NCBI GenBank assembly: GCA_030390025.1
Contig: CM059432.1
Location: 50,718,001 to 50,782,000, forward strand
DNA: 64,000 bases
Direction of reading: 5' to 3'
DNA from: Squalus acanthias
Lineage: Eukaryota
Every line of letters starts with the position of its first letter. The stretch's first letter is position 1. Under the pieces are notes generated by a model that saw nothing but the letters and a program-made list of their open reading frames with translations, made no database searches and was not told where the DNA came from. The position numbers were made by a program, and so were the translations under genes. Shown here one piece after another: positions 7,679 to 61,998 of the stretch.

Positions 7679-7797
7679 CGATCCTAACTTAAAGGGTCTC
7701 TTACAGCCACCACAGAATTCATACTGACATTCTGAGCAAGTAAAATGAATACAACCCCCTCTGGACAGGTCAAATCGAACTCTGCAATTAGGGCACT
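7679..7797 (-). CDS. Exon, catalytic RING2 ([40 protein letters not shown])
   Basis: ctgctttag|AG...TCG|gtaagt; 119 nt, phase 1->0; GGCIHF corresponds to HOIP GGCMHF (catalytic Cys/His). Confidence 0.95.
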
Positions 7798-10700: not shown

Positions 10701-13700
10701 ATTTATCGTATGTATTTTTTTCCGTCAAAACAGTAAAATTCTACCTGACAAGCAAATCTTGTCAGTAGCCCACAGAATAAGGGCGCAATTTGATGACTAC
10801 AGTTGTGTCTGTGGCATGCTAAAAAATTAAGTTAATCTATAATTATCAGCTGCTGTTAGGTGCAAATATAGTTACCTAATCCATTTTGGGTGAGGTAGAT
10901 GTCTAGTTTGCTTGCCTGATACTCAGGGTTATTCTGCTGCTTCCATATCTTAAACTTTTCGCAGCTGATCCCTTCATGCTGTTGCTCCCACTGAGGAAAA
11001 AAAACATGAAGCATCATTGGTCATAGTTCTGTGAAATCTCCACAACAGCTGGAATGCAGATCAATTAAATACAGATAATTATACAGTCCAACAGATTACT
11101 TACAGGAATCTTGCATTGGAAGCATGAGCTTTTTTCACAAGAAGGACAATCCATTCTCAATCTATCTATCTCATGCAACAGTCCAAAGGAACACTGAAAG
11201 AAACAATATAACATTTAGCATAGAAACCATGTTCAGTATAAAACTTAGCTTAATGCAATTTCAACTAATTCCAATTTGTATTCCAAACTTGATCAAATAA
11301 TTTTGCCTCAACCATATGGTTGCCATATGATGTTTGTTTCTTTGGTAGACAGGAAATTAAGGAAGTCAAGAACTGCGATCCACAGCCATTACTCACAGAC
11401 ATGCCTATCTACACAGTGGCTCATCGTTTGAAGCCACAATGGTTAAAGTGTTCAGACAGCCTCCATAGATTCGGTGCAGAGATCATGGAACAATTCTACA
11501 ACTAACAAATACAAATATCTAAGTTCTAATACAAACAATCAGTATAACTAATCTTGCAAATGAACTTAACTAAAAAGATGCAAGAGAGCCATGCTAGTCT
11601 TTTTAAAAATCTAATTCTGCCATTTTGAAACCATTATCTGCAAAACTGCAGCTGTGCATTTCCACGGCGTGGTGTGAGAGTTGGATAGGCACTCTATTAA
11701 ATCTGTAACTGTACGTAGCTCTGGAGTATTGTGGAGACAGTGGAATCTTATAGGCAGAAAGTGCTGAAATATAAAATGGAAATAAAGAATACATTTCAAT
11801 GTAGAAATGTAAATCCAGAGCTCCCCTGAGCTCAGCGGATAAATGGACCACCTAGTGTAGTACAGAGTCACATAAACCAGAAAGGTCCCTAGTCTGCGCA
11901 GAGTTATGTGAACTCAGCCAAGGCAGAAGTGGGGCACTATAAATGGTTTCTACACCCTAGACTAGGGAGGAAGAAATAAAACAGCCAGGATTCCCACCTC
12001 TGATGATTGCCCAGGTGTCTAGATATTGGGTATAGCCTGGATTAGCCTCAGCTGTGATGTCCCTACAGCCAAATAACTTACCAACACTCAGGGCTAGAAA
12101 TTCATCATAGCCCAGAATGGGCGGTATCATTAGAAAAGTTGGAGAATTAGCGCCAGGCGCTAATGCTTTAGACTGCATGCAAAATTCGCGCTCATTGCTC
12201 AAAAAAATGATTGGAGTCCTAATTCAAGTCTTTAAGCCCAAGCTCATTGGTGTTACACTCAAAGGCTGAGGGGGTCGTTCGGCCCGACTGCCTGCCTCTC
12301 TTCCACGGCCACGTTCGCGCCCAGGTGGTCCTGGAGATGGAACACGGGGTGTCCGCCGGCACGCTCGAGGCCTTCCGTGACCGGTGGGCACCGGAGGGAC
12401 TGGAGTGCATCATCACCCCCGGCAATAAAATTTTAATTTAAGTTGTTAAGTTTACTTTAATGTTTTTTGTTAAGTTACAGTTTTATTGTTTATTGTTCAA
12501 ACCAGAAGAGTACACTCAAAGGGTGGACCAATATCAGGTGCAGTCTAATCACAAGTCATGATTGTCACAGGCTTTTTTCAGTACTTAAAGGGGAGGTTCA
12601 TTGATGCTGCAGAATCTAATTTTCAGCATTGCTGGCTATGCAGCTGTCTCAGCAAGCAACAGCAGGTCAAGGAGAAGGAGCGGAGGACTGAAGCAACTGT
12701 ACGCATGGCAGATCCACGCCTCAGGGAGAGAGCCTGCAGATTCTGCGATTAAGCACTGTAGGCGTTGGTGTTCGCTGTGGAAAGACGGAGGGCAGTGCTC
12801 TACCCAGCAAGTGGCAGGAGGCCCTCGCCGCAAGTCTTCCGCACCATGTGGAGGGAGGCAGTGCAGCACGTCTTGGGCAACACTGTGGTGCCAAGGACCC
12901 ACACACAGTGCAGGAAGATATTTAACGACCTCACTCGGGTTGTCAGGGTGAGTGAATGCTTCAACAAATGCTACATAACACCATCTGAACCACAGTCTTC
13001 ACACACTGCCCAAAGCACCACACCCCCAGCACTCACCCACCAACAATCTCTACCTACCAACACACACACCCACATCTCAAACCTTGCACACAATGACAGC
13101 TATTCAACTACGGCAGGCACATCACCCAAACACATTGTTCCACGCTCACTCACACACTTTCCTTTCTCTTGCAGGCCAAGGTGGCTCACAACAGGAGGGA
13201 GCAGGAGCGCATAGGCAGGGGACAAGCCGACAGACAACAACTGTCTGCGCTGGAAAATAGAGTGCTGCAGATTATTGGGCGCCAGGTGGTGGGCGCCGTG
13301 GCCAATGGCGACATTGACCCCCTTAGGGACACTAACTGTATGTTCATCCCTACTCCTTCTTCTCACACCCAACTTCCCTCTGACCCCACAACCCTTTCAC
13401 ACTTTCCATCCAATCATGGTGTATGCATGCATTTCTCTCTTCCTGTCCCGCTCCCCTCACCTTAACCCGACTCTTGTGCCTTTATGCTTTCAGATAATGA
13501 GCAAGCACCTGAGCAGCCTGTCCCTGAGGGCACTGTAAAAAGCGAGGGAGGGGAGAAGAGGAGGAGGAACACACCGCGTCACTGCATGTTCTCACCTGCA
13601 GGCACCAGCTCAGATCCTGGCACTACGCGTTCTTTAGAGGCTAGTATAGTAGCGGGATCTGCACAGGGTAATGCACCGGGAACGAGCGGGCTGCAGCAAG

Positions 13701-16700
13701 GCAGGTGGAAAGGGTAGCTCGGGGGCCAGCTCCCTGGAGGGTGAGTTCATGCGTGAGTTCTGTTGCACAGAAATCAGATGAGGACCTCGATGGGGAGGCC
13801 TTTAGAAGAAGGGTGATGGGCATGCACATGGAGATGATAGGTGCAATGGAAAGGTGCCTGAGAGCCATTCGGCAATGATAAGGAGCGTGGAGGAGTCCGC
13901 CTCCAACATTGCACAAGGCTCTGCGCACACCATGGAGCCCATAATTTCCAGTCTGCAAAGGATGGTAGACTCCCAAAGAGACCGTGGCGACCCAGACCAG
14001 ATGCCGCGTGTGATGGGCAATCTGGCAGCTTCCATTGCAGCACAGGCGGAAGCGACGCAATGTCTTAGTGCTGTAATGCAGTCTCAGCTTGATGCCACGC
14101 AAGCTCTGACTGCTGCCATTTTGGCTTGGTCTACCACCATCGACTCAGGCTTTCACTGTGTCACAGCAGGCCAGCAATGGGACACCCGCTCAGCCGAGTA
14201 CTGAAGGGTCAAGGCAGTGGAATCATTGCTTGAGCACCCCGATGGTCTGCTCGATGATGTTCCTGGTGGCAGCATGGCTCTCATTATATGAGTGCTGGGC
14301 AGGTGTGGTGGGGTTGTGGAGGGGAGTCATGAGCCAGGTGGAGAGTGGATAGCCGTTGTCTCCGACCAGCCAGCCGCGAGCTTGACGTGGTGGCTGGAAG
14401 AGTGCTGGCACACCGGTCTGGCGCAGGATGAAGGCATCGTGGCTGCTGCCAGGATAGCGGACATTCACATTGAGGATTCGCTGTCTGTGGTCACACACCA
14501 ACTGCACATTAAGTGAGTAGTAGGCTTTGCGGTTACGGAAGATCTCAGGATTGTTATGCGGTGCCCGGAAAGCCACGTGGGTGCAGTCAGTGGCGCCCTG
14601 TACCATGGGGAATCCCGCTATCCTGGCAAAGCCACATGCATGCTCGTCCTGCTTCTCTCTGGTGATAGGGAAGGAAATGTAGTTCCTTCTCCTACTGTAG
14701 GGAGCCTCTGTGACCTCCTGGATGCAGCGATGGATGGCAAACTGCGAGATGATCCCTTTAAATAACGTCCCTGGAGCAGGCTTCTTGCTGCTTCACACCA
14801 GCTCTCCCTGTCGCGGTTGACTCTAGGCGCTAAGGTAGGTGGTGACAATCAATTTCGCAGATTGGGCGCTCAGTGGGCGTTGCACATTCACTGATGTTAC
14901 GATCCACCTGGTGTTGAGGCTCCTGGTGATAACTGTTAGCGGTGGCACTGTGGGGGCGGGATTTGGCGATAATGCTCTCGCGCCCCGTTAGCTCCATCTG
15001 CTGGCGCTAATGGGAGGCGCTAAGGTACCGAATTTTTCCCCCTCACTGTCTTGCCTCCAACATAAAGAATGGTCATGAGCAAGGTAGTTGAGGACTACTG
15101 ACACCCATGCAACTGAGTGCCAGCAAGAGTTATCGCTTTCGGGAGTGGAAGGAAGAACATAGGAACAGGAGTAGGCCATTCAACACCTCAAGCCTGTTCT
15201 GCCATTCAATTAGATCATGGCTGATCTGTATCTTAACTTCATCTACCTGCCTTGGTTCAATAACCTTTAATATCTTTGCCTAACAAAAATCTATCAATCT
15301 CAGCTTTGAAATTTTCAACTGACCTAGCCTCAACAACTTTTTGGAACATAGGATCATAGAAAAAATGTAAAAATCCAACACTGAAAAGTACAAATGATTA
15401 CAAAAATAAAATCTCTATTGGGTGTCTTGTTTGAGAAAAACCTTTCTAGATCGAAATGTAACAAGCACAAACATTCTTACATGTGCACACCATCTGAAGT
15501 TTGGCATTTCCATCAGAGTTCGGTCTCGAAGTTTTCTTTGAAACAACTCATGAGTTTCTTTGTCAAGATAATGGCGAATCTAATTGTTAAAAAAAACACA
15601 GATTTTTCAGTTCATCAAAATTTTCTTTAAAAAATGAAAAGATACACAGATAGGTACTTCATTATTAAAACTACAGAATTAAACTTTTCAAAATAAATTT
15701 TTTATGCAAGTTTAGTAGAATTGTCACACTTCAAATTTTCTTCCATTTCCATCCTGCAAAGTCACCTGGTTTGACATACATTGTTTTCGAACCACAAAAT
15801 AAATAATGTTTGTATTTAGGTTTTAAATCACTAGTCATGATGCGCGATCTGCCCGCGCCTGTTGAAAGTACTGCAGGCAGCACGCAAAATTTGTGCTGCC
15901 TGCTCATTAACATGATTAAAGTGCTGAGCCCAACACGTTGCTAGTTGGCTCAGCGCTCAGCAGGGGGCCCAATATCATGGGAGGTCTGCTCTGTATTTAA
16001 AGGTTGCCTGCAGAGTGAAAGGCTGTCTGCACTTCTTAAAGGGAAGGTGCTTTGTGTGAGAAGTACCTCATTCTGACTAGAGCGAAGCAAAGGGGAAGTT
16101 AGCAATGTCACAACACGGCAGAGAAAGGGCACCTCGGTTCTCATTGCAGGCCTTGGTGCAGGGGGTCGATAGGAGGAGACAGGTCCTCTTCTCGTGGTGG
16201 GCCAGAAGGCCTTTTAGACAGAGTGTACGAAGGCAGTGGGAGGAGATAGCTGAAGCAGTCAGTGTCATCAGTCTTTCCCCCAGGACCTGGATCCAGTGCC
16301 GGAAGAGGTTTAATGACTTCACACGAGTGGTCAAGGTGAGTGAATGCCATATCAAATGCCATATTCCACCAACTGCACCACTAGCCTCACACACTGCTCA
16401 ATGTACCACACCTCAATCACTCACCTACCAACAATCTCTATCAATCACCACTCATACCCCACAATCATAGCTTCACCTCACATACTTACCACTGTTGCAA
16501 GCCTCAGATGCACATCTCACACAATGCCAGCTATTCAACCATGACAGTGACATCACCCAAACACACTGCACCACACGCACTGACACACTTCACCCAAACA
16601 CATTGCACCACACGCACTGACACACTTCACCCAAACACACTGCACCACACTCACTGACACACTTCACCCAAACACACTGCACCACACGCACTGACACACT

Positions 16701-19700: not shown

Positions 19701-22700
19701 GGAACAACGACATCGAAAATGGCAGGTCATGCGTCAAATCAGCATTACACGCTGACTGACATCACGATCTGCCTACTTTACATTCTGTCGGCGCACGCAC
19801 GTCCCACCCATGCTATCGCCCTCACCAAGATGGTGACCGGCGGAAGCAAGACATCCGCCATTTTTTTTCTCCAAACTGGCCTTAACTGCCAACGCTAAGG
19901 TGCCAAATTTCATGGCCAATATGTTTTACAAGAATAAACTTTAAAAAAATGTCAATCAATATAATTCAAAGTTTTGCAGCTCGCAAAATATCTGACAAGT
20001 TTAAGTCAAGTGGATTGGTTACTTTAAAAAAAATAAATGTTACACAGACTGAACACTTCTGTCACTCTCTCACAAAAAATTCCCATTAACAAAAAAAGAG
20101 CGACCGTATTTATCAATTCTGCTACTATGTCTATCTGAAGTCTTTTACAGTTTGCCAAACCTCATACTTTTGAGTCTTCCATTGCTTACTCTTATTCACA
20201 TAGTTACACAACTTATTTCCTGAACTAAGCTTCTGATATAATCTACTCTCTGCTAACAACTTTTCTGGATTTTTCTTCTCAGATTTTAAAACTCCAACCT
20301 GAATATCCAATAAATTGAAGTACTCTGTGATATCCTCTTGGAGTTGGTGGCTTTTCAGATCAGGTGTACTACACATTGGGCAAACCACGCTAACAATATT
20401 TTTTTCCTTTATGACTGATGAAAAATACTTCTTAAAACAGTCTTCACAGAAAGAACAGCTACAGTGTACCATTTTGATAATCTACAAAAATAAAAGTATA
20501 AGGATTTTAATCAACATGTCATTTAAATAATAAACCACCAAAATAATTTATCTAGTTCAATGCAAGTCATTTAAGTTAAACAAACTATAGAAAGACAGCA
20601 CTCACACACTATACAATATATATCCACAATCAAGTTTTAAAAAAATGTGATCCAGATTTAAGAATTACATAATGCATAGATAACACACACATTTTATTAC
20701 ACAAGAATAACACTGATTGCAGTTCTAAAACATACACTGAACATGATTAATAGATGGAAGTGATTATTGGCCAGCAGTCTAACTTGGGATTCAGAGGATG
20801 TTTAGAAGCTGCTACAACCTTCGCTGAATATTCTTAATTTCCACTGTTCCATATGCAACTTTTTTTTTAATGTATTTGGAAAGCAGTGTGCATTTTAAAG
20901 CAATAGCAAATTACAACCTGTGCATCACATAATGAAAAACAGAATGCTTTACAAGCTGATTAATTAGGCTACTATATGAATAAGCAAGCAGAGGACCCAC
21001 AAGTTCAATGAGGGCCTGGAGGAAGTTTACTGATTAATTCCCCGAGAACCCCTTTAAATCATTTGGTGATTTTAAGTGCTAAGCAAGGCAACAAATGTCA
21101 GGACAATGAAGGAATCAGTATCCACATCAAGCAATTACAGCTTGGGTACAGCATGGTCAGGTGCAGAATGAAGCTCTTTCTACTCTGCCTCAACAGTTTA
21201 CCTTACGGCCAAGCTCAAAAGACCACCCCTTGTGCACCAGTGTCAATCTTTCCATTTCCCACACAAGCTTTATTTCACCTATGCCTACAAAGCACAATTG
21301 AGATACATAAACTGTAACAGTTTGTGACTGAACAAAATAATTAAATTTCCAAGTCAGTATTCTAATAACAGTGTACAACTTAACCAGTTAGAGCAGAAGA
21401 TGTGCTCTACTGTCTTAGTACTCTTGGATGATAGGAGTTTTGGGGCTTCCTAGCAAACAGGTAATTATATCAATATGCCTGGTCACAGGGTAGTGCAGCA
21501 TGGGGGAACATTGCTGTATCATGTCACAGAGCAGTCACACAAGGGTTCATGTCCAATGATGTGGTGGGTTAAAAGGGGAAGATGGATTTTTTTTTAAATT
21601 GCCTAAAGGACTGTAAACAACAGATGGCTTTAAATGGGGTAGTTTCCTAATAGGGGACAATCATGAATGGGCTTGCTCCAGGGTTCAGTACTGGGTCCCT
21701 TTCTGTTCATTATATTCATTAATGATCTGGAGGAGGACATAAGCAGCACAGTCATTAAATCTGCAATGACGCCAAATTGTTTGGAAGAGTCTAGGAAAGA
21801 GAAATAGACAACTGGATTTGGATAGATTGTGGAAGTGGGCCCAAGACTCGCAAATGTCCTTCAATATCACCAAGTGTGAAGATATGCACGTGCATATATG
21901 AGGGCATAGAACATAACATGAGTCAGGTAGAGGTAACTGAATGGGAGAAAAAGTTCAAGCTCAGTGTTGGAAAGTCATGACCAGAGCTAACAGAACCCTA
22001 AGCTGTATTAGCCAGACCATGAAAATAGGATTATTTAAAGCTTTTCAGCTTTAAAGGAATTTCAGGCAGAGGGCTGCTGAACTGGTCACATATTTTTCTC
22101 TATCAGGAGGGAAGGGAAGGGATGGTTGGTGCACAGGAATAAAATCAGCTGAATGATGTGGGCAAGCACGTATGGGTCTGAGGGCTTTTGTGTGCCCTGG
22201 ATACATAAATACATAAAACATAACATCAGAAGCTAACTACTTCATACTCAGCTCTGCACAAGGTACAAGTGTGCTGCATGGGTCATAGATTTTGCAAGAG
22301 CAAATTAGTGCTGCCTGATACTACACAGCAGAGCCAAGAATTCTATACATTATACCATACCTTGCTAAAAGATACTTGTTCACTGCAAATGGGACACTCA
22401 TGAGAAAGATACCGCACAGCTGTTTCGTAATTTAAACCAGACTGCACAACTTCCATCACATCCTCAACATTGAAATTCTGGTCTTGAAGGCTCAGTAAAC
22501 TCTGAAAAATTTCTGATTTTTCCTTTGACAGACCAACAGGAATCGATGACAAATTTAGCTGTGAATTGAAAAAACAAAAACCCCTCTGTGATTAAGAGGA
22601 AAAACTTCCTTTGTAACCTAAAAAAGTCTATTTCACAATGATCTAATACTTACCTTCGACATGGTATCTGCTATCACAGTAAATAAGTAGGTGTTAAAAC

Positions 22701-25700
22701 ACAATGAACTAAGGGAAACTAAAGTTCTAGTTCACAAGCACCAATATGTCAGTATTTAAAGTCACCTACCTGGGTTTGGCAGGTATGCACCATATCCACA
22801 GTGAGAATTTTAGCCCCAGCATCATCTTTAGCTAATACACCATCTTTTTCATTATACAACTTCACTTGCAGAGGGAAGTTTTTATTATTAATGGTGATTA
22901 CATGATGTTCCTGTTGGACAACTCTTTCTGCAACTGAATAAAAAATGTAATAAGTTTAATATACTTTGGGTCAGTGAATAGAGCACAAGTTTTCACATCT
23001 AGTATGACAATGGAAAATACTTGGTACCCATATTTTTGTTTAACCTTATTGTGTACGTTACATTTTATGCAATTTTTCTCAGTGACTGGAACCAAAGTCA
23101 ATTGGATTTCTTTGTTTGTTTTAAAAATCATAGTTTTCCAAGGCTATTAGAACAATTTCCCATTAACATTACCAGACTGCCATTTTGGTATCAGATTTTA
23201 TTCCAGTTTGCATGAGGCAATGCGACACAAACTTATTTTTCTTTTAAATCGTGATTATGAACTTGCTGGAAAAAATGCAGCCCCTTGCTGGAAAATATAT
23301 GGGGTAAACCTTATCTGTAATTTAAAAAGCCTTATTGGAAAGTCAAGGAGAAAGCATGACCATCAGCACTCCTTTTTAAACAGAATTACAGTAAATCATT
23401 TCTGTTGATTTTTTTCAAAATATTTTTGCTTAATATGACTGACAATATTACCATGTACACTGGAAGCACCTAAGATTGATCATATTCTTCCCATAATAGA
23501 TGTTAATTCAGTTCCCTCAGAATGTAGAATTATGGTGCTATTTTATGGCTCTGGGTACTTGAAAAGGTATAACTCTAGCATCAATCACAGCAGATATAAA
23601 AGTACAACACACATTAGTTTTGAACACAACTAATAAAGTCTTATTTTTTGATGACAAATAAAGATTTTAAAATAAAGTTATGTAGATGAGTGCACAAAAA
23701 TTAAAATCCTGCATTATTGTTTGAAACACATTGTACGAACTAAATCATACTTCAAGCATATTGTACCTTTGGCATCATCAAAGGTGATAACAGCAGATCC
23801 TGGAATTCGAGTTGGATACTGAAAATTGACTATTTCCCCACCACCGTTTCTAGCTCTTTGGAAAAATATGGTAAGCTTATCTTTTATCCTGTGCCCTGGA
23901 AACTCAACAGGAATTTTAAGTACGTGTACTCTCCGTTTATCCTTATACAAGCTTGAATTCTGAGTGTCATGTAAACTCAAAGGTTTTGCATCTTCTGATT
24001 CAATCCGATCCGAAAAAGACGTAAAATTAGCCACACCTTCAAGAAACAGAGAACATGTCATTCTAAAACCTGCATGTCACAGTATTATGAGATTTGACAC
24101 AGGTAAATCATATGGAAAATCTGTACACCTCTACATAAATAATAATTTTTCAAAGATCAGCTTTGTTTAAAAGAATATTTTACATCGATGGATGCACATC
24201 AATGCAAGATTGGCAGTACAACTGGCAGTCAGATCCCTATCTGACTCCAGTGCACACGACAGGAGGCGGCATTACGCAAGTTTTAGTTAGCAGCAGGTAT
24301 AGTATAACTCCAACCTGATACAAAGCCACATTTTAGAATTTCCCAGGACCCTTTGAGCACCTGGGCACTTGATAGAATTTTCATCATTAGGAGAAAGGGA
24401 TATTCGCAGCTGTACTGTCTTAATATTGAAAATGACCAGCCAGGGAGTAGTGCTCTGCGTGTGCATTCAAGTACACTTGCAGTAGAATTCCAACTGCGCA
24501 CTGCACTTCACGGATACTGGCCTGAGACTAGTAGCTGCAGTATAAAAGCAGCTAAATACTTTCTGCTAGTTTTTTCTAAGTTGATTTTCTCACTAATGGG
24601 GACTTTCTAAATATTAATTAGCACTCTTAATAATCTATTCTAAAAGACAGCAGTAGAACTACTTCAAATATTAAAAGATATTCATTCTCGAACAAATATT
24701 TTGTAAGGAAATAAGACACTAAGCAAGATAAGATAAAGACAAAGCAGTTATTCAATTTAAGCACTTCAAATTTCAGGTGTAATGTATAAGTGCTACCTTG
24801 TTTCTTTTGGGAAGATGTCACCAAGTTAAACGCATTAAGCACTTTGTCCAAATGCAAGTCTTTAAAGCAATCTACAGTTTCTTCGATAGAATCCATTTTC
24901 TTCTTCACTGCATGATCTATCAAATAAAGGAAACAAGAATACATTTCAACCAACTGATTAAAAATGCAGTAAAGAGTAACTACACAGACATATTGACAAT
25001 CTCATACTTGAAATTAAATACTTTTTTTTTACGGCAGTCTGGTGACACAAAGGCCAGGATTTTACTGAATTTAAATTCCCCAGATGATGTGGTGATATTT
25101 GACTCATGGGCTGGATTTTCTCAATGGGGAGCTTTTGGAGGCAGGACTCCCACTTGTCGGGTTTTAGTCCTGCCTCCATCGACTTGTGGCCAACCCACGC
25201 TATTTTCCCTTGATTGACCTTGTTAAGCCCACCCAGCGGGCTTAGCAGGCCAATTAAGGGAGAGCCGGTTACAGGTGACGTCAGCGAGTGACATTTCATC
25301 TGTCGAGAGCTTTTGACAGATGAAATGACAGTGTTTGACGGCTCTGTGAAGCTGTCAAACACTGACAATCTGTCCTCTAAGTTGAGCCCTTCCACTCAGG
25401 CTCAGTTAGAGATCTCTCCTGAGCAGAAAGCAGAAGGCTGCAGCTTTTGACAGTTCAGCGGCCATTCTGCTTTCTGTGCCGGTGAGATGAGGGACTCCCG
25501 AGAACTGAAGGGATGAAGCCTGCAGGAAGAAGTAAAGGTAAGTAAAACTTATTGAAACACTTTACACTCACCTCACACACTCACCTCTCCACACTTGCAC
25601 CATCGACCACTCCGTCCCCCGCAGACCGACGGCCCACCTCGCTGACCCTGGCAAGTTAATTGGCACTAATCCCCTTCCCGCCTCGAGGAGATGGGACCCG

Positions 25701-28700
25701 GCGTGGGTCGGGTACCTGCCTCCTGGGAAGATGGCACATAAGCGGGTTGGGGGCGGGATGGGTACCCGCCCCCAGATTCTGCCATTTTCCCAGCAGTCCC
25801 GCCTCCCCAGGGCTGGCAAAGTCGCCCCCATGTCTCCGGATCATTACAAAAGCAAAATACTGCGGATGCTGAAAATCTGAAATAAAAACAAAAAATGCTG
25901 GAATACTCAGCATGTCAGGCAGCATCTGTGGAGACAGAAACAGAGTTAACGTTCCAGGTTGATGTCCTTTCATCAGAACTGACGAATAGTCACCGACCTG
26001 AAACGTTAACTCTGTTTCTTCTCCACAGATGTTGCCTGACCTGCTGACTGTTTCCAGCATTTTGTTTTTATTTCAGATTTCCAGCATCTGCAGTATTTTC
26101 CTTTTGAATAGTTAAGGGAGTGAGAGGGGTAGGGAAAGGGTGATGAAATGAGATAGGGATGGAAAACAGCAAACCTGATGGTTAGGTTTGAAATTAAAAT
26201 GCAAGATGCTAGCAGAGTACAGTGGGCAATACATGAGAAATTGTTTCTCAACCTCGTGTTGAGCTGCATTGAAACAGTGCAAGAGGCTAAAGACTGACAG
26301 TCAGGTCAGAATGGGAATGTGGGGGGGGGGGGGGGTTCAAGTGGCAAGCCACAGAGAACTCAGGGCCACACTGGCAAATAGAACAGAGGTGTTCTGCAAA
26401 GTGGTCACTTAATGCGCTTTTGTTCCCCTCAATGTAAAGATGAACACACTGCGACAGCAAATATGAAATTATCTTTCAAGTTTTGTACCATCAGTACAAA
26501 GGTAGTATTACACATCAATGTAGTTCACCAAAGGATAATCTGAAAACCTCCATGTCTCTTTCCTGTAATTCTGAAGAGTTGATATTTATTCTTTGTGAAC
26601 AGGCCACAGTGTGTTTCTCTTAGTATTATGTACCTTTTGACTTTGTCCCCATGGGAGGAGAAGCTTCTGCAGGGCTTTGTGAAAATGAGATTCCCAGAGA
26701 CATCAGCTCTGTTACATAAGATGTTTTCTCAGATTTATTTGAAGTGTACTCTCCAGAATGCAAAGGTGCCCCTTTTGCAACGCAATGGACATCTGAAATA
26801 CAGAATAATGTATTGCTGCATTTGAGAGCGGAGTTAGAATAGAGTATTTTATATATAACAGATTACCAGTGGGGGATGTAGAACATATAACAATTGTGGG
26901 TTCTAAAAAGAACTGGATAAAGCCCAAGTAGGAAAAGGGATATAAGAATATTAGTTCCAGAATCCTGATAAGGAAATTGATGGGTGGCTTAGAAGGTTAG
27001 GCTAGATGGGTCAGTGGTCTTCTCCTGCCCAAAGCATTACTGTTACTATATAAAGGATTGCTAACAAAACTTACTGATTGAGCTGGTATGGTGATGCAGC
27101 ACATTGGGGTATTAATGTATCCATATTACTACCTATTTAACCTGAGCCACACCTCTTTTGAGGTGGGGGTGGGTGCAGAGCAGAGACTAGGCCCTTCCTC
27201 ACATAACAGGCGAGAAAGAACAGAGAAGCATCTAAAAAACATCTGGTTTCAGGATGGTATTAGGAAAGCATGGTTTCGAGTAATCTGCCCACGAAGAGGT
27301 TTCCTTTCCTGAAGGACATTAGTGAACTACTTGGGATTTTACAACAGCTTTAATGATCATTTTTCTTGGTGCCAGCCCATAAATTACCAGATTTATTGCA
27401 TTCAATTTCACAGTTTGCCATGATGAGATTTGAACACCATCTATCTATATCTAGTATATTAAAAAATCTTATGCCTGCACGTAGTTCCTGTCTGCATCAC
27501 TTGGTTTCCTGTAGTCACGTTCTTGTCACACTTTTGAGCCAACTTTTACTATTATAAATTCCTGGGATGGGGGAAAATTGGGATGGTGAAGGGATGTTGA
27601 AGAGAGAGGAAAAAGAAAAAGAGAAACAGCAACACAACTATAACAGAGACAAGGGATAAGAGAGACCATATTCTGACTTACCATTTGCAACTCCACAGGA
27701 GATCGACTAACAGTATCTTAAAAATCTTATGTCGGCACACACTTTCAACTTTTGCCATTATAAATTACTCTGTATATTTTTATAATGGAAACTGCCTATA
27801 TAAAACTTCTCCTCCCCAATTTGAAGTGCTGCAGTACCACCACTGGCAGGAGGGTATATTTACAGCATGACAAGTTGACATGGCAGTTTCCATTATAAAT
27901 TTCTATGTCCACATTTATAAAGGAAAATTCAAAAACAAGGACAGAATGTATGGCTTTAAAATGAGGACTAAATTAAGTCTGTGCACCCTGATCCAATTAT
28001 TTCCTGCCCTCCAACCATATTTCACCTGAAGACTACACTTGGTCTCGACTCCCCTTGTGCAACACCATGGGACTATTATCAGACTAAATTTTCCTTGCAA
28101 TGGAAGAATTTTTTAAATGTACCAGTTTCCAAACTTCAAACAAGTTGCACCTTCTACAAATTAAAACAACATCAACTTGTTGTTTCAAGATATTTTGACC
28201 ATTTACCATAGAAAGGATTTGGAAAAGAGTTACATTTAAGGGTTGTGTTTTAAAGCACGGAGATAAAAGGTGGCTAAATGGTAATTTTCCCCAAAGACCG
28301 TTGGTAATAAGCAATTTATTAGCCTGTTTCGTTAATCGATAAATATCTCATGCATTCTGTCGGGAGGTCCCTGATCCTGGGTGTTCGGCAGGGGTTATCT
28401 GACATAGGCCCCTCTCCTCCACTTGTGAACACAGGGAGTTAAACAATAGGGCAGAGACACATGTAGGCAGTCACCAGGTACAAGGGAGAATGCAGCAGGG
28501 TAGTTAGGAGTTATTTTGTTTAAGTCAAGCAAAATGATCCACGGATGTGGGAAAACGTAGCGTGTTCATTATTTTCACATTGTTACACAAAGCCAAGTTG
28601 TACTGTGAATTAAGTGAGTCTGATCATAACAATTGCTGGATTATAAAACAGGAATACATACCAGATTTTCCCTTGAGAACTTCATATAAAGATCTGGAAG

Positions 28701-31700
28701 GTAACAGACTGAACGACATAAGAAATAAAATAAAACAAAACATTTAGTGCTACTACTTCAACCCCATTATGCAACTACACCAACATTTTTAACAAACTAT
28801 GAACAAAAATGAATAAAACCACCTGTATTTCTTTTAACCTGTTGATGTTAATAATAGTTTTAAAACATTTTAAATTCATTTTTGTTTCATGAAATTGTCA
28901 GTCATGTAAGAGACACTTATAACGAAAGCATCAATAGGCTTACTTACTAATGTTCCCAGTTATTTTTTGTTGCAGAACTGTTGGAAAGGGTTTTCAAATG
29001 TCATCTGAATTTTTGTATTGTAGAAGGAAACTTTAAAACCCCAATACATCTTAGACACAAAACCAACTTTCTACAGAATACAAAAGCAAAATACTGCGGA
29101 TGCTGGAAATCTGAAATAAAAACAGAAAATGCTGGAAATACCTAGCAGGTCAGGCAGCATCTGTGGAGAGAGAGGAACAGAGTCAACGTTTCAGGTCGAT
29201 GACCTTTCAATCGACCCGAAACGTTGGCCTGGATATTAACGGGGCGAGGGGCGGAGTTTCGGATGGGAAACCTGGAAGTCTGGGTTACCCCGCATGCTCT
29301 GGAGTTTTAACTCCACAGCATGCGTCTTTTGTCATTGACAGGTTCCCCACCCAGAAGTCAGCCTGATTGACAGGCTTAGCTTCCAGTCGTGCGGGGAGGT
29401 CTCTGGAGCAGGCCTCAGGACCAGGTAGGTCCGATCCACAACCCCGGGGGGAGGTATCCAATCCCAGGGTAGGTCCAATTCCCAACCCCGGGGGGAGGTA
29501 TCCAATCCCAGGGTAGGTCCGATTCCCAACCCCGGGGGGAGGTATCCAATCCCGGGGTAGGTTCCCATTCCCAACCCCGGGGGGAGGTATCCAATCCCGG
29601 GGTAGGTCCGATTCCCAACCCCGGGGGGAGGTATCCAATCCCGGGGTAGGTCCGATCCACAACCCCGGGGGCAGGTATCCAATCCCGGGGTAGGTCCCAT
29701 TCCCAACCCCGGTGGGGGGAGGGGGAAGTCGGGGGGTTGTCTCATCCAATCTCCGACCCTGGGGGTCTTTTTATTGGGGGGTGGGTGGGTAGGTAGGATG
29801 CACTCCTGTTCCTCCTGGCCCACAAGCAGTGGTGTAAAGGCATTTACCTTCTCCCCGAAGCTGTCCTCACCTCCCTTCAGCCGCTGGGTTTCCTGAAGCT
29901 TGGGATACCCTGCTGGCCAGTTAAATCTGTAAAACAGTTTAAATCAGAGACTGCTAGCCTCATTAAAATATTTAAATTCCCAACTCACCTCCTGGGAGCA
30001 GGTTGGCTGCCTTCCCCTTGTCCCACCTCCGTTAAATCCAGAAGTGGGCGGGTTGAGATTTTTTTAAATTTTAACTTTTGACCCGACCCCAATGCACCCG
30101 TTTTTGGGTGTTACAATCCAGCCCGTTAACTCTGTTTCTCTCTCCACAGATGCTGCCTGACCCGCTGAGTATTTCCAGCATTTTCTGTTTTATTTCTACA
30201 GAATACGCAATATGAATCATACGAGTTTGCACAATACAATAAACGACAGCAGAGATCGCAATGTACTTATGCTTCTTTTCTAATGCAGTTTCAGTGACAT
30301 ATAGTCTGTTCCTTTTAACTCAATTTCCCTTGAAGGAAAAATCAAATTATCCAATAATTCAAATGAAGCAATTTAAATGAAACAACACAGGGCAGTTTAT
30401 GTACAATCTTAATTTGAATTAACAGGTAACAGGCAATTTCTTAGTATTGAGTATTACCTTGGAGAAATTCTTGTAGGAGACACAGAGTAACCACTGCCTA
30501 CTCTGCCTTGATGTTGGTAACTAAGGGCTGTAAAAGTTAAATGCAAATACAATTAACATATTTAAACATACAATGATCTTAACAAATTTGTGCACAGTTA
30601 AAAAGTTACAATATATATTTTTACATATAAAAAGATGTAAGTAGGCATCCTTGATGGCTGATGGGTAAATACCCTGTCTGGTGTAATACCTCGCCCCTCC
30701 CTATCTCTGTAATCTCCTCCAGTCCCACAACCCGATGAGATATCTGCGCTTCTCTAATTCTGGTGTCTTGCGTATCCACGATTTTAATCGCTCCACCATT
30801 GGTGGCTGTGCCTTCAGCTGCCAAGGCCCTAAGCTCTGGAAATCCCTCGCTAAACCTCTCTGCCTCTCTTTCCTCCTTTAAGATGCTCCTTAAAACCTAG
30901 CTCTTTAACCAAGCTTTTGGTCATCTGCCCTAATATCTCCTTATGTGGCTCGGTGTCAAATTTTGTCTGATAGCGCTCCTGTGAAGCACCTTGGGACGTT
31001 TTACTACATTAAAGGTGCTATATAAATGCAAGTTGTTGTTGTTGGAGCCTAAGAAGTAACTGAGTAGAGTGAGGACTGATGTACATCTCGCTTCACTCAG
31101 CTCACCTTGTGCCACTTTGGTTTAGCTGATAGCACTTTGGGTCAGTATTACTTCTTACGTTCTTATGACACTTCAGTGTAAGAGCAGGAGTAGGCCATAT
31201 GGCCCCTTCGAGCCTGCTTCACCATTCAGTAAGATCATGGCTGATCATCAACCTCAACCACACTTTCCCGCCCCATCTCCATATCCCTTGATTCCCCTAG
31301 AGTCCAAAAATCTATCTATCTCAGCCTTGAATATACTCAAAGACTCAGCATTCACAGCTCTCTGGGACAGAGAATTCCAAAGATTCACAACCCTCTGAGT
31401 GAAGAAATTCCTCCTCATCTCAGTCTTAAATGGCCTACCCCTTATCCTGAGACTATGCCCCCTAGTTCTAGACACTCCAGCCAGGGGAAACAACCTCTCA
31501 GCATCTACCCTGTCAATCCCCTTCAGAATCTTGTATGTTTCAATGAGATCACCTCTCATTCTTCTAAACTCCAGAGAGTATAGGCCCATTCTACACAATC
31601 TCTCATCATAGGACAGCCCTCTCATCTCAGGAATCAATCTAGTGAACCTTTGTTGCACCGCCTCCAAGGCAAGTATATCCTTACTTTAGATAAGGAGACC

Positions 31701-34700: not shown

Positions 34701-37700
34701 CCTTTCCTTTATGTACTAACTTGCCTACAAGGTATTTTCAGGTGTTAATATTTGATAAAATTATTGAAAAACACATTTACTATTTAAAAATGACTCAGTA
34801 TGCAGTTATCTTAACCTGTTTACTTACGCCATTCAGTTGAATAGGCAGGCAGGACACAACCAGAAATCAGAGGCTGAGGAACGTTTTGGAGACTCTGACA
34901 ACTATTTCCAATGGAAGGTGCAATGGTACAACTGAAAAGCAACATACCTCATCAGATTTTATCTTTTAGAGATGATGTACTGTACTGCAAAGGCTTGTAT
35001 TTTCAGCCAGTGGTAAAGGTGGAAAACTCCACTCCCACTCAATTCTTTAATTTCACCCTATTGACAATATTTAAAAAATACTATTCTATTGATGGCTGCC
35101 TAATACTCAAAGTTAAATTGAGACAACTTATTTTCTCTGCAGAAGTGCAGAACATGCAAAATCCACTTAAGAAAATAATAACCTACTGTCCACACTCGGC
35201 TCTTTGTTTGGCCCCAGTAAGAGCTGTGCAAGCTAAAATAGGAGTTCTGATCCATTGTGGACAGGCCTCCAGCTTTCTCCAATGCAAGCTATCTATTTCG
35301 ATCAGTACAAAACTAAGCAGGAGAGTGGGGTTGACTCAGGGAAGTCACAGAGCAGTAGACAAATGTCCAGGACCATCAGATAGGAGGCTGGGTGGAGAAG
35401 CAGTAGGGAAGGTGGAGACCGAGGAGAAGTCCTCCCAGTGAGGCTGGTGACAATGAGGTTGAAAACACATTGGGCCGGATTTTCCGATCGGAGGCTTCCT
35501 GCGTGCGGATGCCTCCGATCGGGAAAAATCTACGCACTTACCTGCTGGCTCCATAGGTCCCGAGACTTCCGATCCTGGGCCTCTCCTGGTCCGCGTGCGC
35601 AGAGGCCCAGGTATCCCAGGGGCGCAGGCGGTTCGCAAACGTCCCTGGGATCACGTGGGCCATGGGGAACCAATCAACGAAGGGACTCCCCATTCATACT
35701 TTTGACAGGTCTCTCCGCATAGATCTGTCAAAAGTATGAATGGGGATCACATTTAAAAACAGAGTTAAACATTAAATAATTTTTTTTTAAATCACGTATT
35801 TAAAATTAGTTAAAATTACATTAAATTAAATATTTTAAACAAAAATTTAATTTTTTGAAAAAAATAATTAAAGTTTTTTACAGGGCTAAAAATAAACTTA
35901 CCTTTTTTAAAAAGTATTTTTAAATTATAAATGAGCGAAAAAAATAATTTTTTAAAACTCTTATGCTGGTAAAAGCAGGCCTTACGCATGCTTCTACCAG
36001 GCGTAAGATATTTAAAGGTTTTCAGCAGGCGGAGGTTGTGCAGAAAGCGGAACTCCCTGCCTGCGGAGGCCCTTCTCCCAGACAGATTGGAAGTGCCGGG
36101 TTTTAGCGCATGCGCTTCGCATACCTGAAACCGGCACTTGCGAGGCCCCTACGGGTGCTTACACACCTCGTACGTACCCGTGGAGGTCGAAGTATCTGGC
36201 CCAATAGTAGGCATTACAGCATTAAGTTACCAATAACTGCTGTTTTTTCATGTTTGGTGGGTTACTGTGTAGAGTTAAACAGCAAACTGTAATGGCAGTA
36301 GAAAGGGACCTCAATGTTTTTCCTAGTAACGCCAATTGGTTCACTATCTAGTGTAAAGAACAGATCAGAAAGGATAATTGAATTATTTCCTTAACACGTT
36401 ATTGGCTTATTGCTTTTACTGTAGAAAAACAGCCAATCGGAAAATTGGGAATAAAGCCTACATTGAATCAATCAGAATGCTCCTGTATGAGGCTTCAGAA
36501 AGACAAAAATTAAATTGATAAACTCCCTATGCATTTATTTAAGTTTAATGGCCGTTTAGCAGAGTACTCCTTCTGTTGGACGTTTTAACCAATTAATATA
36601 CGACCCCACATGAAAAATTTGATGAAGCTTTTTAGTTTTTAACATTTTACTCCAACTATTGTAGCCTGGAAACTAACCCTTAAAATACTATATAGATCAA
36701 ACTAACCTGTTCACAAACCTTAATATCCATTGTTACAATTTTTGAGCAATGCTTTTTATGTTAACATTTAAAATAGAAACACCCTATGTTAACATTTGAA
36801 GACTCAGTACGTAATATGTAAACATTTATAATGAGAATCTTCCTGTCATGCTGTAGTTGCAGATATCCCACCAGTGGTGGCGCTGTGGGCCAAGGCATCT
36901 CGCTCCATCGCCATTTTATTTTGTTTCTTTCCAAAACCAAGACGCAGCACATCATTGGGCTGGTACCTGCTGCCTTCTATATAGTAGTCCCGGCCTGCCA
37001 TTCGTCATCCCCACTCGCCTCCTGACCCATTATGGTGATCTAGCATTGGGCCCCAGCTTGCCTGCCCTCTTGTCCATCGCCTTCCACGATCCCAATCACG
37101 TGCTACCCGAGGCCAGCCCTGTCATTTTCACTGCTAAACCAGCACCTCAGTCCTCAAACTGTAATGCTGCTTATATATAAAACCTATAATATTAAAAACA
37201 TACATCTGCATAAACTTTGTCAACTTTTTCCATTATTAATTCTCATGTCCACATTTATAATGGAAACTACCTATCTAAACTTATCACACTGTAATTACAC
37301 CCTTCTGCCAATAGTGTCATCCTAGCACCTGTTTTGTATTTATCAGTTCTTCAGTCTGTACTCCAGAGAAACGCCTATGTTCCAACTAACTCTATGGCCG
37401 TGATTTTGCGTTCGGTGGCGGGATGGGTGCGTGTCAGCTGGTTTCCAGGTTCTGGTCACGCCCCCAGCTGCCTCCACTCCACAGATGTGAGTTTCCCTTG
37501 ATTGACCTTGTTAAGCGGGCTTAACGGCCAATTAACAGGAAGCGGGTCATAGAAACATAGAAGATAGGAGCAGGAGTAGGCCATTCGGCCCCTCGAGCCT
37601 GCTCCGCCATTCAATGCGATCATGGCTGATCATCCAAATTCAGTACCCTGTCCCTGCTTTCTCCCCATATCCCTTGGTCCCTTTAGCCTTAAGAAATATA

Positions 37701-40700
37701 TCTAACTCCTTCTTGAATATATTTAATGAATTGGCCTCAACTGCCTTCTGTGGTAGAGAATTCCACAGGTTCACCACTCTCTGGGTGAAGAAATTCCTCC
37801 TCATCTCAGTCCTAAATGGCTTACCCCTTATCCTTAGACTGTGACCTCTGGTTCTGGACTCCCCCGCCATCGGGAACATCCTTCCTGCATCTAGTCTGTC
37901 TAGTCCTGTTAGAATTTTATAAGTTTCAATGAGATCCCCTCTCATTCTTCTAAACTCTAGCGAATATAAGCCTAATCGACCCAATCTCTCTTCATACTTC
38001 ATTCCTGCCATCCCAGGTATCAGCCTGGTGAATCTTCGCTGCACTTCCTCCATGGCAAGAACATTCTTTCTCAGATAAGGCGACCAAAACTGCACACAAT
38101 ACTCAAGGTGTGGTCTCACCAAGGCCCTGTACAACTGCAGCAAGACATCCTTGCTCCTGTACTCGAATCCTCTCGCTATGAAGGCCAACATACCATTTGC
38201 CTTCTTCACCGCCTGCTGCACCTGCATACTTACCTTCAGCGACTGGTGCACAAGGACACCCAGGTCTCGTTGCACTTCCCCTTTTCCCAATCTATTGCCG
38301 TTCAGATAATAATCTGTCTTCCTGTTTTTGCCACCAAAGTGGATAACCTCGCATTTATCCACATTATACTGCATCTGCCATGCATCTGCCCAATCACCCA
38401 ACCTGTCCAAATCATACTGGAGTTTCTCTGCATCCTCCTCACAGCACACACGACACAGCTTTGTGTCGTCTGCAAACTTGGAGATATTACATCTAGTTCC
38501 CTCGTCTAGATCATTAATGGGTCTCATGACGTCATTTGATGATGCGTCATCTGCCAGTTTCCTTAAAGGGACCATGCACAATTTTATTTTGACAGTTGAT
38601 TTCTCAGTGTTTGACAGCATTGAGGTTCTGAAAACACTGACAATCACTGCACAAAGGTGAACTCTTGCACCCAGGCACTCCAATGACTCCCTCCATATGC
38701 TGGAATAGATGGCAGCTGCAGGTGAGATGACAGAAGCGATCTGTCACTGGCGAGAGAGGTTCTCCCAATGAGGTGACACTGGACATATAGTTGATTTAAA
38801 AACTTGTAAGATAAAGAAATCTGTTTATGTTTTAAAAATGCAGTAACCAACATTTTCTTTGCTCCAAAACTCACCATGTGCAACATTGCATCCTTCACAC
38901 CACTTCTGCAGCTGTCATGTTTTCACAAACATTACACCAGACTCACAACACGCCACACTTACCTGGCGTGGTGTCCGGACGTCATGAAACCCATCCTAGA
39001 AGCGGGAAAATTGAAAAACAGGCTGAACACTACTGACAAGTACCTGTTAATAGGCAGGTAATTGCCTTTAATCCGTTTCCTGCCGCTAGGTGTCGGGTCC
39101 ATTCGCAAATCGGGGACCCGACACTTGGGAAGGCTGTTTGGAGGCGGGTTGACAGCGGGTTCGTGGCCCGCCGTCAATCAATAGGACTTTAACCTCTGAC
39201 CCGCCTCTCTGAGCGCTGGCAAAATCACGGCCTACATCTCTACTTCCCAAACTGACTGTACCTTTTTTAAAGTAAAAGGACAATATCTATTTAAATAGAT
39301 TTACACAACAATGCCCTTGTTATTGGTGCATTGATATTTAATGTAGTGAGTTATTGCAATTCTGTAGTTAACTGCAATCTAGTGTACCATTAACATTTTT
39401 AAATATTCTCACTGCTTCACTTCTTGTTGAACAAAGTACACTGTATTTGCATCAATAAATCTACCACTGCAATAATTGACAAATTTACAGAGGAGTTACA
39501 AAGTATTTAACTTCTAAAAGTAATCACCCATAGGATAGGGATAATCACCAGCAACAGGGGCTTACCTTGGCTGAGGAGGTATAGCAAGAGAGTTGGGAGA
39601 AAGGTGTGCTAAAAGACACAATTCAAAGTAAAATTAAAACATGTTCTCCTAAAGCTCTATTTGCAAATATCACTTTTACAATTCTCTTCCAAGTCATGCC
39701 TTTTTTTTGTACTTTAACAGACTTTAAAGATTTTGCATTCCAAATTTTTTCCTCAACAAAATAAAGAAGTTGTAAGTTATTCAAATTAATTAAAGTGAAT
39801 GGGAAGCGATTTCCAGGCTTTAGCACATGAAAAGTGCCTGCTTACCAGCGCTTTATTCCAAGAAGTAGTCACTTCTTTCTTACTCAACATATCTATATTA
39901 AAAATCTTGTCTTTGCATGCACTCTCTCTCTCTCCAGAAAACCATACTTCATATTAAAAATCCTTATGTCCACATTTATATTAGAAACTGCCTATGTAAA
40001 CTAGTCATGCTATAATTGCACCCTCCTTGTCAGTGGTCTGCCAGCATAGGCAGTTTCCATTACAAATGTGGACAGCGGAATTTGTAATGGAAACATAAAA
40101 ATAAGGATGGGACGTATGATGTTAAAATGGGGTCTGAATTATGTCTGAACGCTTTGCTCCAATTATCCCACACCCTTTAACCTTGCTTCACCCGAAGATT
40201 ACACTTGGTCTTTATTCACTGTGTGCAATGGCACTGGAAAGCAACTAATTCCAATTATAAATACACTAAAAATGTTCCCCATTTCATTAAAGAAACTTGT
40301 GTTCCTGTTAGATATATCATTAATGACATAGTTACATCAAGAACAACAATCTATAAAAGTGAAATTCAAAATGGTGGCATGCCACAATGTGCAAAGTGGA
40401 GTTCCTGAACTTTGCACTGCCTTTGGGAAGGGGCTAAGTGGAAGTTTGGTGTTTTCCCACAGGGATGGGGGAAAAAAGATAAAAGGGAAAATTTATTCCT
40501 AGACTGGTCATATATCCTTTTTTCTTCAGAGAAGCAGTAAGGTCTGGGAGCAGACTGCCTTTCCTCTCAGCCATTGCTGGTGCAAAGTATGGGAAGACCA
40601 GTGAAGGGAAGAAAATAAACTAAAACAAAAAACTGAAATTTAAAAAAGGTGGAGACAATGGATTTTGCTAAATCTTTTAATATAAAAATGTAAAATGTAC

Positions 40701-58681: not shown

Positions 58682-58952
58682 GGGCTCGATTTTAATGGAG
58701 GAGGCGGGATGGAGTTGAGTAGCCTGGTGGGCGGGTTTTGGACCCGCTGCCGGTTTCAGCCGCTCCTGGTGTCCCATTTTCACTTAATTGGTCCACTTAG
58801 CCCCGTCGTGCGCGCTGCCTGCTGCAATGAGGTGCAGTGGGTCTGTTGGTCTGCACTGATGAGGTCTTTGCTGCACTTGTTTTTAAGGGCTCCATGTAGC
58901 CTCAGCCTCTCATTTCTCGTTGCTGCTGCTGCTGGAAAGGGCCAGGATCACC

Positions 58953-60830: not shown

Positions 60831-60984
60831 ATAGTCACAAGGGTAGTCACTTGGATGTCTTATAGTGTTATTTAATATCGAGTGTCATCCTTTTGTGATG
60901 TAATTAAACAAAAGTGATGGCAAAGAGTTGATGTTCTGGCCTATGTGTTCTGGGAAATGGAAGTTCAAGAGTGAGGGCTCAGGG

Positions 60985-61998
60985 CTAATTCCATTTATAA
61001 TGATAGTGGTGAGAGTGAGCGTACTGCTGGGCTCCACCAGATCTGTCCAGGCATTGGAAGCGCATTTTGAGCAAGTTGATGGTTTGCTCTATGATGCTTC
61101 TGGTGGAAAGGTAGCACACATTGTAGCGCTCCTCAGCCTCGTTTGTTGGCCTTCTCATCGGTGTCATAAGCCACTTTTTCAGGGGATAGCCCTTGTCGCC
61201 AAGAAGCCATCCGCAAAGTTGGGTTGGCAGATGGAAGAGCTGAGGCACACTAGACTGCCGCAGGATGAAGGAGTCATGGCAACTGCCAGGGTACTTTGCG
61301 CCAACATGCATGATGATCGTCCTGTGGTTACACACCAGCTGGACGTTCAGGGAGTGGAATCCCTTGCGGTTGACAAATACAGCTGGGTTGTGATGGGGTG
61401 CCCTAATGGCTACATGTGTGCAGTCTATGACTGCCCTGCACCATTGGCAAGCCTGCCACACTGGCAAAGCCAACCGCATGAGCGGTCACACTTGGGCCAT
61501 CCGTGGAGAAGTGGATGTAATTGTGGGCCTTTGCAAAGAGGGCATCGGTGACCTGTGTGATGCAGGTGTGTGTGGCCGACTGGGAAATGCCGCTGATGTG
61601 TGCAGCTGATCCCTGGAAGGAGCCCGAAGCAAAGAGGTTGAGTGCGGTGGTGACTTTGACAGCCACTGGTAAGGAGTGTCCACACACTCCTCTGGGCTCC
61701 AGGTGTTGGTGCAGGTGTCAGCGACTACGTCTCTCGAAAGTCTCAGCCTCCTTTGGCACTGCTGCTCAGTCATGCTGAGGAAGTTGGTCCTCGGCCTATA
61801 AACCCTGTGTTGGGGGTATCTCCTGCGGCAAGGTGCAGCACTGCGCTGACGCCCTCTGCCCTGTGCAACATCAGGTGGGTGAGGAGGAGATAGGCGCTCC
61901 TGGTGCTGGTGCTGCTGTTGTGGCTGGTTGTGGTGCTGCCGCGGCTGCTCTTCCTCCGAATCTGACGACCAGGATGAGAGGATATAAATGGTTTCCAT
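60985..61998 (-). pseudogene. Harbinger DDE transposase (HARBI1-like), frameshifted
   Basis: [63 protein letters not shown] split across ORFs. Confidence 0.9.

Follow-up and report, generated by a model that had tools for sequence, protein, structure and literature searches.

A spliced HOIP paralog with UEV and NID domains in Squalus acanthias, a candidate second Met1-ubiquitin ligase

HOIP (RNF31) is described in reviews as the only E3 ligase that assembles Met1-linked ubiquitin (PMC6966713, PMC5413910). Its isolated RBR-LDD core makes linear chains without partners, and the autoinhibition of HOIP is released via the UBA (PMC6966713, PMC3814767), the region that binds the UBL domains being assigned to residues 466-630 (PMC11322871). 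Drosophila LUBEL, also an RBR-LDD ligase, is reported to form linear chains and to function without HOIL-1L or SHARPIN (PMC5413910). NIDs, in turn, are described as existing only in NMI and IFP35; they dimerise via alpha1 salt bridges (D175-K176 and E178-K183 in NMI), and the NIDs of NMI and IFI35 were negative with nucleic acid in electrophoretic mobility shift assays (data not shown in the source; PMC13196095). Here we analyze a gene on the minus strand of a 64,000-nucleotide stretch of Squalus acanthias DNA (contig CM059432.1, positions 50,718,001 to 50,782,000; hereafter the window, whose numbering is used below) in which an NID is spliced onto a HOIP-type catalytic core. By sequence, this gene is an ortholog of the annotated si:dkey-181m9.8 and a paralog of HOIP.

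Shark proteins mapped onto the window and the neighbouring genome yielded a model of 24 coding exons (Table 1) with AG/GT at every junction and a single open frame of 917 residues, in the order UEV, linker, NID, UBA-like bundle, RBR and LDD. The predicted protein shares 77-83% identity with four shark orthologs and 47% with that of the coelacanth. With the NID exon as query, 10 shark proteins (797-943 residues) were retrieved, all carrying the UEV, NID, IBR and LDD families and four of them named si:dkey-181m9.8. Genes under this name or 'RNF31-like' (Heptranchias P0006, Latimeria P0017 and Salmo salar XP_013994681.2) are orthologs with identical domain order, although the database entries are automatic annotation and often misnamed RNF31 or lubel. 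When ortholog P0002 was modelled with AlphaFold on an 89-row alignment, UEV and NID were both predicted with confidence; some 150 disordered linker residues separate them, and a short spacer leads from the NID to a three-helix bundle that is followed by the RBR-LDD. Packing between the domains was not confident (predicted template modelling score, pTM, 0.34). VIA structure searches matched it to the TSG101 UEV (Z 20.6, root-mean-square deviation 2.1 over 137 residues), to HOIP RING2-LDD (Z 14.4) and, over residues 301-398, to RRMs (Z 10-12.5), including the PARP10 RRM 2dhx (Z 10.8, deviation 3.2, 83 residues aligned).

The fusion of the NID to the HOIP core is real and spliced. Exon 12 (270 nucleotides, preceded by AG and ending in AAAG before GT) stops in phase 1; exon 13 (164 nucleotides) begins with TT, the split codon G-TT encoding Val, and ends in phase 0; exon 14 (198 nucleotides) is phase 0-0, and the frame across all three is stop-free when joined, just as a preliminary description of the locus had stated. 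That description had proposed junction-spanning reads at 23767/22933 (833 nucleotides skipped, CT..AC) and 22770/22558 (211 skipped) as its check, and both joints were spanned by contigs from three of three RNA-type runs, X3 and X8 of one study and X5 of another, as were joints 20481/22361 and 24034/24795. The RNA type of these libraries is a tool guess, no run being recorded as RNA; their long contigs are confined to exons. In X4 and X7, contigs put exactly 164 letters between the flanking exons, which is the length of exon 13, and joint 11193/15481 was present in four of four runs. Downstream of exon 15, the contig letters number 861, exactly the summed length of exons 16-23, and loose contig ends match exons 10 and 16, those of X3, X8 and X5 at 24918 fitting the 3' end of exon 10. 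One contig reaches 881 letters upstream, compatible with the UEV exons, which were placed by protein mapping and have no read joints. Run X9, from a related organism (27 differences over 1.3 kb), is unspliced through 21714-23024. The direct in-frame join of an RRM to the HOIP pre-RING segment, as first described, thus holds for exons 12-14; the linker and UEV upstream of them had been omitted. In the intron 3' of the NID exon, low-depth contigs (X1, X3, X7) cover 23409-23796, from unspliced RNA or retention at that donor.

The catalytic core is of HOIP type. The RBR-LDD matches the HOIP structure 5EDV at E 9e-105 and contains, as in HOIP-family ligases, a RING1-IBR-RING2 with catalytic Cys and His. 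With residue numbers counted from the 5EDV alignment, the Cys885 equivalent is kept in 89/89 aligned orthologs, the His887 equivalent in 88/89, and the LDD zinc ligands and LRDW motif (containing the equivalents of R935/D936, which we take to function in acceptor-ubiquitin binding) in 87-88/89, the remainder being gaps. LDD family PF18091 scores 89-93 bits in the orthologs, and profile matches within the genome fall at this locus too. Judged by these conserved residues, the paralog is probably a Met1 ligase. Its core is 44-45% identical to those of jawed-vertebrate HOIPs, and canonical HOIP occupies a separate locus in the same genome, on contig C242, which led us to reject a rearranged canonical HOIP. 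This qualifies the preliminary description: the gene is a separate paralog, whose most constant N-terminal module is the UEV.

In a quick RBR tree of 51 rows picked from about 270 proteins, within which cyclostome HOIPs were unresolved, 18 of 18 paralog rows from sharks, rays, coelacanth, bowfin, teleosts and frogs formed one group (Shimodaira-Hasegawa-like approximate likelihood-ratio support 99), separate from the HOIPs of ray, pipefish and caecilian (98). This grouping apart from the HOIPs places the paralog before the shark/bony fish split. In lamprey and hagfish, the proteins show the canonical architecture of HOIP. The paralog is present in sharks, coelacanth, ray-finned fishes and frogs; no amniote name occurred among the best 120 of 252 matches, names having been looked up for 20 proteins.

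The paralog shares with HOIP the RBR-LDD, the catalytic Cys/His, the LDD zinc ligands, LRDW and, probably, a third-UBA remnant before RING1, but has a UEV and an NID instead of the PUB, B-box, NZF and UBA pair. UBA_HOIP (PF16678) occurs in this genome only on C242 and was found in none of three orthologs scanned (E<=0.1). The NZF motif is missing from the 94-kb gene span and was recovered on C242 as a positive control, and tblastn with four canonical HOIP N-terminal halves (E<0.01) found nothing in that span while matching C242, including its UBA exons. PUB had no match in the gene span or the orthologs, and the C242 stretch examined yielded no PUB control either. HOIP 466-630 corresponds to PF16678, and the UBL-binding region is therefore absent from the paralog. 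Thus, the earlier claim that HOIP's NZF and its HOIL-1L/SHARPIN-binding UBA were lost is supported, and because both are absent, the paralog is likely to be independent of its partners in LUBAC (linear ubiquitin chain assembly complex). The independence that had been proposed on the same grounds stands at this strength, as a reading of the absence. LUBEL differs in having a B-box, NZF and UBAs and in being the sole copy in a genome without the partners, whereas the shark gene coexists with HOIP and SHARPIN.

What precedes RING1 had been described simply as a pre-RING segment. Exon 14 encodes a UBA/CUE-like three-helix bundle (weak structure matches, Z 4-5 only) that aligns at the third UBA of HOIP (PF25163). 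A paralog profile reached canonical HOIPs at a best E of about 0.004, Pfam gave no PF25163 match in the window exon or in orthologs, and conserved E, A and L residues of the bundle each occur in 88 of 89 orthologs. On alignment and model, we regard this exon as a probable remnant of the third UBA.

The domain encoded by exons 12 and 13 is an NID, as first called. The window exon scores 34.6 bits against Pfam NID PF07292 (cut-off 25) and full orthologs 50-57 bits, PARP14 RRM models being the weaker match, and among solved NIDs it matches that of NMI (21NH) at E 2.3e-7 and that of IFI35 at E 0.005. Residues 308-388 of model P0002 (predicted local distance difference test, pLDDT, 91-96) adopt the RRM topology beta1-alpha1-beta2-beta3-alpha2-beta4-beta5, and in the 56 NID-bearing rows the core is kept (K 55, Q 55, GGE 52-56). 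Pfam, the NMI structure match, the fold, profile scores and an NID tree agree on the NID/RBM43-type assignment, and the structure searches that had been suggested as a check, by sequence-to-structure comparison and VIA, place the domain with NID/RRM folds. Foldseek with the whole ortholog model gave no NID entry among the matches listed, a wide VIA search listed RRMs but not 21NH, 21NG or 21OT, and ESM Atlas matches were all below 0.9 (an RBM43 fragment at 0.88) and serve as a lead only. With the NIDs of NMI, IFI35 and RBM43-type proteins (PF07292; 21NH, 21NG, 21OT), the paralog NID shares family, RRM topology, the KL-x-I-x-F...GGE pattern and a phase-1 intron; it differs in being single and fused to an E3 ligase, and in a basic alpha1 without the salt-bridge Glu of NMI.

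Genome-wide, there are eight NID matches. The paralog NID profile gave 82 bits for a gene at 34.76 Mb on C8, 62-63 bits for two others and 30-36 bits for NMI/IFI35-type units, the one on C3 being identified as NMI. The 82-bit gene consists of an NID exon, a small exon and a 499-aa exon with a weak KH_DTX3L match; it and the two 62-bit genes are presumably RBM43-like, a label taken from their layout, their position by NMI/IFI35-like genes and the Atlas lead. In a short NID tree of 58 columns, which does not prove the donor, the 82-bit gene is the sister of the paralog NIDs (support 86). The window NID has a phase-1 intron four residues past the final Phe of beta3, as do five of six other NID exons listed from this genome, the sixth being a last exon. 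This shared intron indicates a DNA-level exon duplication, likely from an RBM43-like gene before the shark/bony fish split; a retrocopy was rejected on the same intron position. The closest relative within the genome (G000:C8:34753187-34758984) shares a chromosome with the paralog, at a distance of 16 Mb. NMI (G000:C3:63396044-63424489) and an IFI35-like gene (C13:24059354-24077138) are each followed by an RBM43-type NID exon, which suggests paired NMI/IFI35 and RBM43 blocks from old duplications.

At the positions equivalent to the NMI dimer interface (the two salt-bridge pairs and L179; 56 rows), K, Ile and R/K are kept, while Glu is replaced by Thr in 52/56 and Asp by Asn in 41/56. The alpha1 window has a mean net charge of +4.2 (n=54 paralogs, range +1 to +6) versus 0 to -2 in 13 shark/ray NMI, and its K, T, Q and R are retained from sharks to carp. 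The basic helix and the lost Glu therefore make an NMI-like self-dimer doubtful and binding of the NID to an acidic partner plausible. By the standard definition of the RNP1 and RNP2 motifs, the paralog NIDs do not keep the aromatic residues: beta1 carries L/V/H/E, and beta3 carries Q/S and mostly V.

The distribution of the NID was read from database models, the best 120 of 252 matches. The 48 listed matches without it comprise 41 named spiny-rayed fishes, 3 frogs, 1 gar model and 3 unnamed proteins, and among the named proteins listed it is missing from 41/41 spiny-rayed fish (by our grouping of the species) and 3/3 frogs; it appears to have been lost in both. Eight isoforms skip the core exon, from bamboo shark, sawfish, gar, bowfin, two eels, arowana and conger, the sawfish isoform also lacking upstream linker exons, and in the shark model removal of exon 12 (phase 1-1) preserves the frame. 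With absence across these lineages and recurrent exon skips, the NID cannot be the family's general recruiter, and the recruitment through NID-type interactions that had been proposed falls as a family-wide device. The NID is instead likely to be an accessory, optional docking module. Exon 10 is a second symmetric phase 1-1 exon, present in contigs of the window species but missing from several of the shark isoforms in databases.

As a candidate for targeting, the UEV would be the more constant one. It matches TSG101 at E 9e-22 in sequence as well as in fold, and the equivalents of the PTAP-pocket residues Met95 and Tyr63 are present in 72/89 and 62/89 orthologs. It differs from TSG101 in that the equivalent of Asn45, the ubiquitin site (PMC7073217), is not kept in the paralogs.

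We propose, holding the reading as a whole to be about an even bet, that this spliced HOIP paralog makes Met1 chains without HOIL-1L or SHARPIN and carries the NID as an optional protein-docking module. E2~Ub would bind RING1, and its ubiquitin would move to the RING2 cysteine and from there to the Met1 of an acceptor ubiquitin positioned on the LDD; the residues for these steps are conserved. The searches found neither the UBA pair, which HOIL-1L and SHARPIN use to relieve HOIP autoinhibition, nor the PUB, which recruits OTULIN and SPATA2; the ligase may thus be active, or otherwise regulated, outside LUBAC. The UEV, as the most widely kept N-terminal module, would be the default targeting device, with P(S/T)AP proteins as its plausible targets in bony fish. 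The weakest steps are that the basic-alpha1 NID would add docking on an acidic partner, most simply an NID of the NMI/IFI35/RBM43 type, which we suggest only tentatively, and that skipping of the NID exon would switch this docking off.

Several observations weigh against this proposal. SHARPIN is present in the genome (PH domain on C4), a UBA-like bundle is retained before RING1, and the HOIP RBR-LDD still needs HOIL-1L to modify NEMO (PMC3814767). The NMI interface residues are altered, and the NID profile scores RBM43-type genes (62-82 bits) above NMI/IFI35 units (30-36). Among the 120 matches listed, 64 have both NID halves, 8 lack the core exon alone and 48 lack both halves, and the skip joint 24797-to-22933 was found in none of three RNA-type runs, whose contigs drop rare forms. 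The Squalus UEV has lost both the Tyr63 and the Met95 equivalents, and no interferon induction assignable to the paralog was found in the literature. The first of these points would suit an alternative catalytic subunit that still uses HOIL-1L/SHARPIN, via the pre-RING bundle or by HOIL-1L substrate priming: the bundle is strongly conserved and UBA/CUE-like, and in the absence of the UBA, HOIP RBR-LDD works together with HOIL-1L on NEMO (PMC3814767). We consider this improbable, since the UBL-binding region PF16678 is absent (PMC11322871) and the bundle that is kept corresponds to the third UBA, a separate domain. That the fusion is a mis-joined prediction, an assembly artefact or a pseudogene is practically negligible. 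The guessed library type and the UEV exons without read support leave some room for it, but the canonical joints in two studies already refute it for the part from NID to RING1, and the 917-aa frame is open, with the UEV-to-LDD architecture and both NID halves recurring in 64/120 of the matches listed.

The remaining alternatives accept an independent ligase and concern the NID. It could be an intramolecular autoinhibitory lid or a passenger on a LUBAC-independent Met1 ligase that finds its targets through the UEV, with no binding of NMI/IFI35. Spiny-rayed fishes and frogs lost the NID while the UEV, pre-RING bundle and RBR-LDD persist, the NID sits where HOIP has its inhibitory UBA pair, separated from the pre-RING bundle by 35-45 residues in sharks and by about 10 in bony fish, and the NMI salt-bridge residues are incompletely kept. 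The alpha1 residues kept from sharks to carp fit a binding surface instead, and the low pTM means that model packing is not confident either way; we see this alternative as possible but rather unlikely. Still less do we expect that the NID/RRM uses its basic helix and loop to bind RNA or another polyanion and recruits the ligase to a ribonucleoprotein, e.g. viral RNA. Its fold resembles RNA-binding RRMs at the Z scores given above, every alpha1 window carries positive net charge and the nearest relatives are RBM43-like genes, one with the weak KH-like match; against this, the RNP2/RNP1 aromatics are not kept, and the NIDs of NMI and IFI35 were reported without nucleic-acid binding, again as data not shown (PMC13196095). 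The preferred reading of the NID remains that of an optional docking module.

Table 1. Coding exons of the HOIP paralog, in transcript order; coordinates are in window numbering unless a genome position is given.
Feature	Position	Strand	Basis
Exon 1, outside window	G000:C8:50793800-50793844		
Exon 2, UEV start	52773..52863	-	protein mapping; UEV PF05743 in orthologs
Exon 3, UEV	48339..48404	-	protein mapping
Exon 4, UEV	42024..42187	-	protein mapping
Exon 5, UEV end	40723..40813	-	protein mapping
Exon 6, low-complexity linker	39566..39608	-	linker pLDDT<50 in ortholog model
Exon 7, linker	34828..34931	-	protein mapping
Exon 8, linker	30458..30527	-	protein mapping
Exon 9, linker	28662..28708	-	protein mapping
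Exon 10, linker, phase 1-1	26634..26792	-	protein mapping and contig loose ends
Exon 11, linker with short conserved helical motif	24797..24916	-	mapping and contigs
Exon 12, NID/RRM core beta1-alpha1-beta2-beta3, phase 1-1	23767..24036	-	Pfam, structure match, contigs
Exon 13, NID remainder alpha2-beta4-beta5 and flexible spacer	22770..22933	-	contigs, ortholog model
Exon 14, pre-RING three-helix bundle (UBA/CUE-like) with the first RING1 cysteines	22361..22558	-	contigs, model
Exon 15, RING1	20299..20481	-	mapping and contigs
Exon 16, RING1-IBR linker	15481..15579	-	mapping; joint 11193/15481
Exon 17, IBR	11104..11193	-	mapping and contigs
Exon 18, IBR-RING2 linker	10876..10990	-	mapping
Exon 19, RING2, catalytic Cys/His (GGCIHF)	7679..7797	-	mapping, in-genome profile match
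Exons 20-24, LDD and stop, outside window	G000:C8:50711782-50717711		

The introns of the gene hold remnants of long interspersed nuclear element (LINE)-type reverse transcriptase/endonuclease at 8708-10423 (a 572-aa open frame), 31257-33964, 37800-38715 and 50900-51387, which we take to be CR1/L2-like, and open reading frame remnants at 12200-19900, 43500-48100 and 58900-62000 that are presumably a Harbinger-like transposase and a Myb/SANT-like protein. On the 107-kb contig C242, the HOIP UBA exon occurs twice with identical scores, at 26561-26836 and 31536-31811, ~5 kb apart, by local duplication or assembly artefact. Among the database proteins, a frog ortholog model (P0018, Mantella aurantiaca) has the pre-RING/RING1 unit in three copies and lacks a UEV, and in three further frog proteins (P0074, P0122, P0130) the LDD hairpin region is shortened or the LDD scores are weak. 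The P0249 cluster of the tetraploid fish Myxocyprinus asiaticus is a truncated second copy that has part of the UEV but lacks the NID core, and is probably a duplicate in decay. A sponge protein (P0123, Ephydatia muelleri) with several HOIP-like RING1-IBR units ranks high against the paralog.

The gene is publicly annotated, and literature searches, with most subscription journals outside their coverage, found no paper on the paralog. Mentions of RNF31 or RNF31-like in three fish infection papers are not assignable to it, and the salmon 'RNF31-like' of PMC12575339, which is A0A1S3QA49 and not among the listed paralog accessions (15 of 56 members), was not used. New here are the spliced NID junctions with read support and, read from sequence comparison, a probable RBM43-like origin with its shared intron, the apparent lineage losses, the recurring exon skip and the basic helix.

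A second intact RBR-LDD enzyme with other targeting modules would overturn the HOIP-only view of Met1-linked ubiquitin for fishes and frogs, and would complicate rnf31 knock-outs in fish models as well as 'RNF31-like' rows in omics data. The NID fusion would directly link NMI/IFI35-type domains to a ubiquitin ligase, and the natural NID-plus, NID-skipped and NID-lost forms offer a ready comparison for the role of the NID. The furthest-reaching version, which we think unlikely but worth stating, is a second LUBAC-independent Met1 ligase beside HOIP in fishes and frogs, whose UEV would read P(S/T)AP motifs, those of budding viruses among them, and whose splice-switchable NID, in sharks, coelacanth and non-spiny-rayed fishes, would bring it to interferon-induced NMI/IFI35 assemblies. 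If true, this would be a linear-ubiquitin antiviral arm that escapes OTULIN recruitment and has been overlooked by HOIP-centred work.

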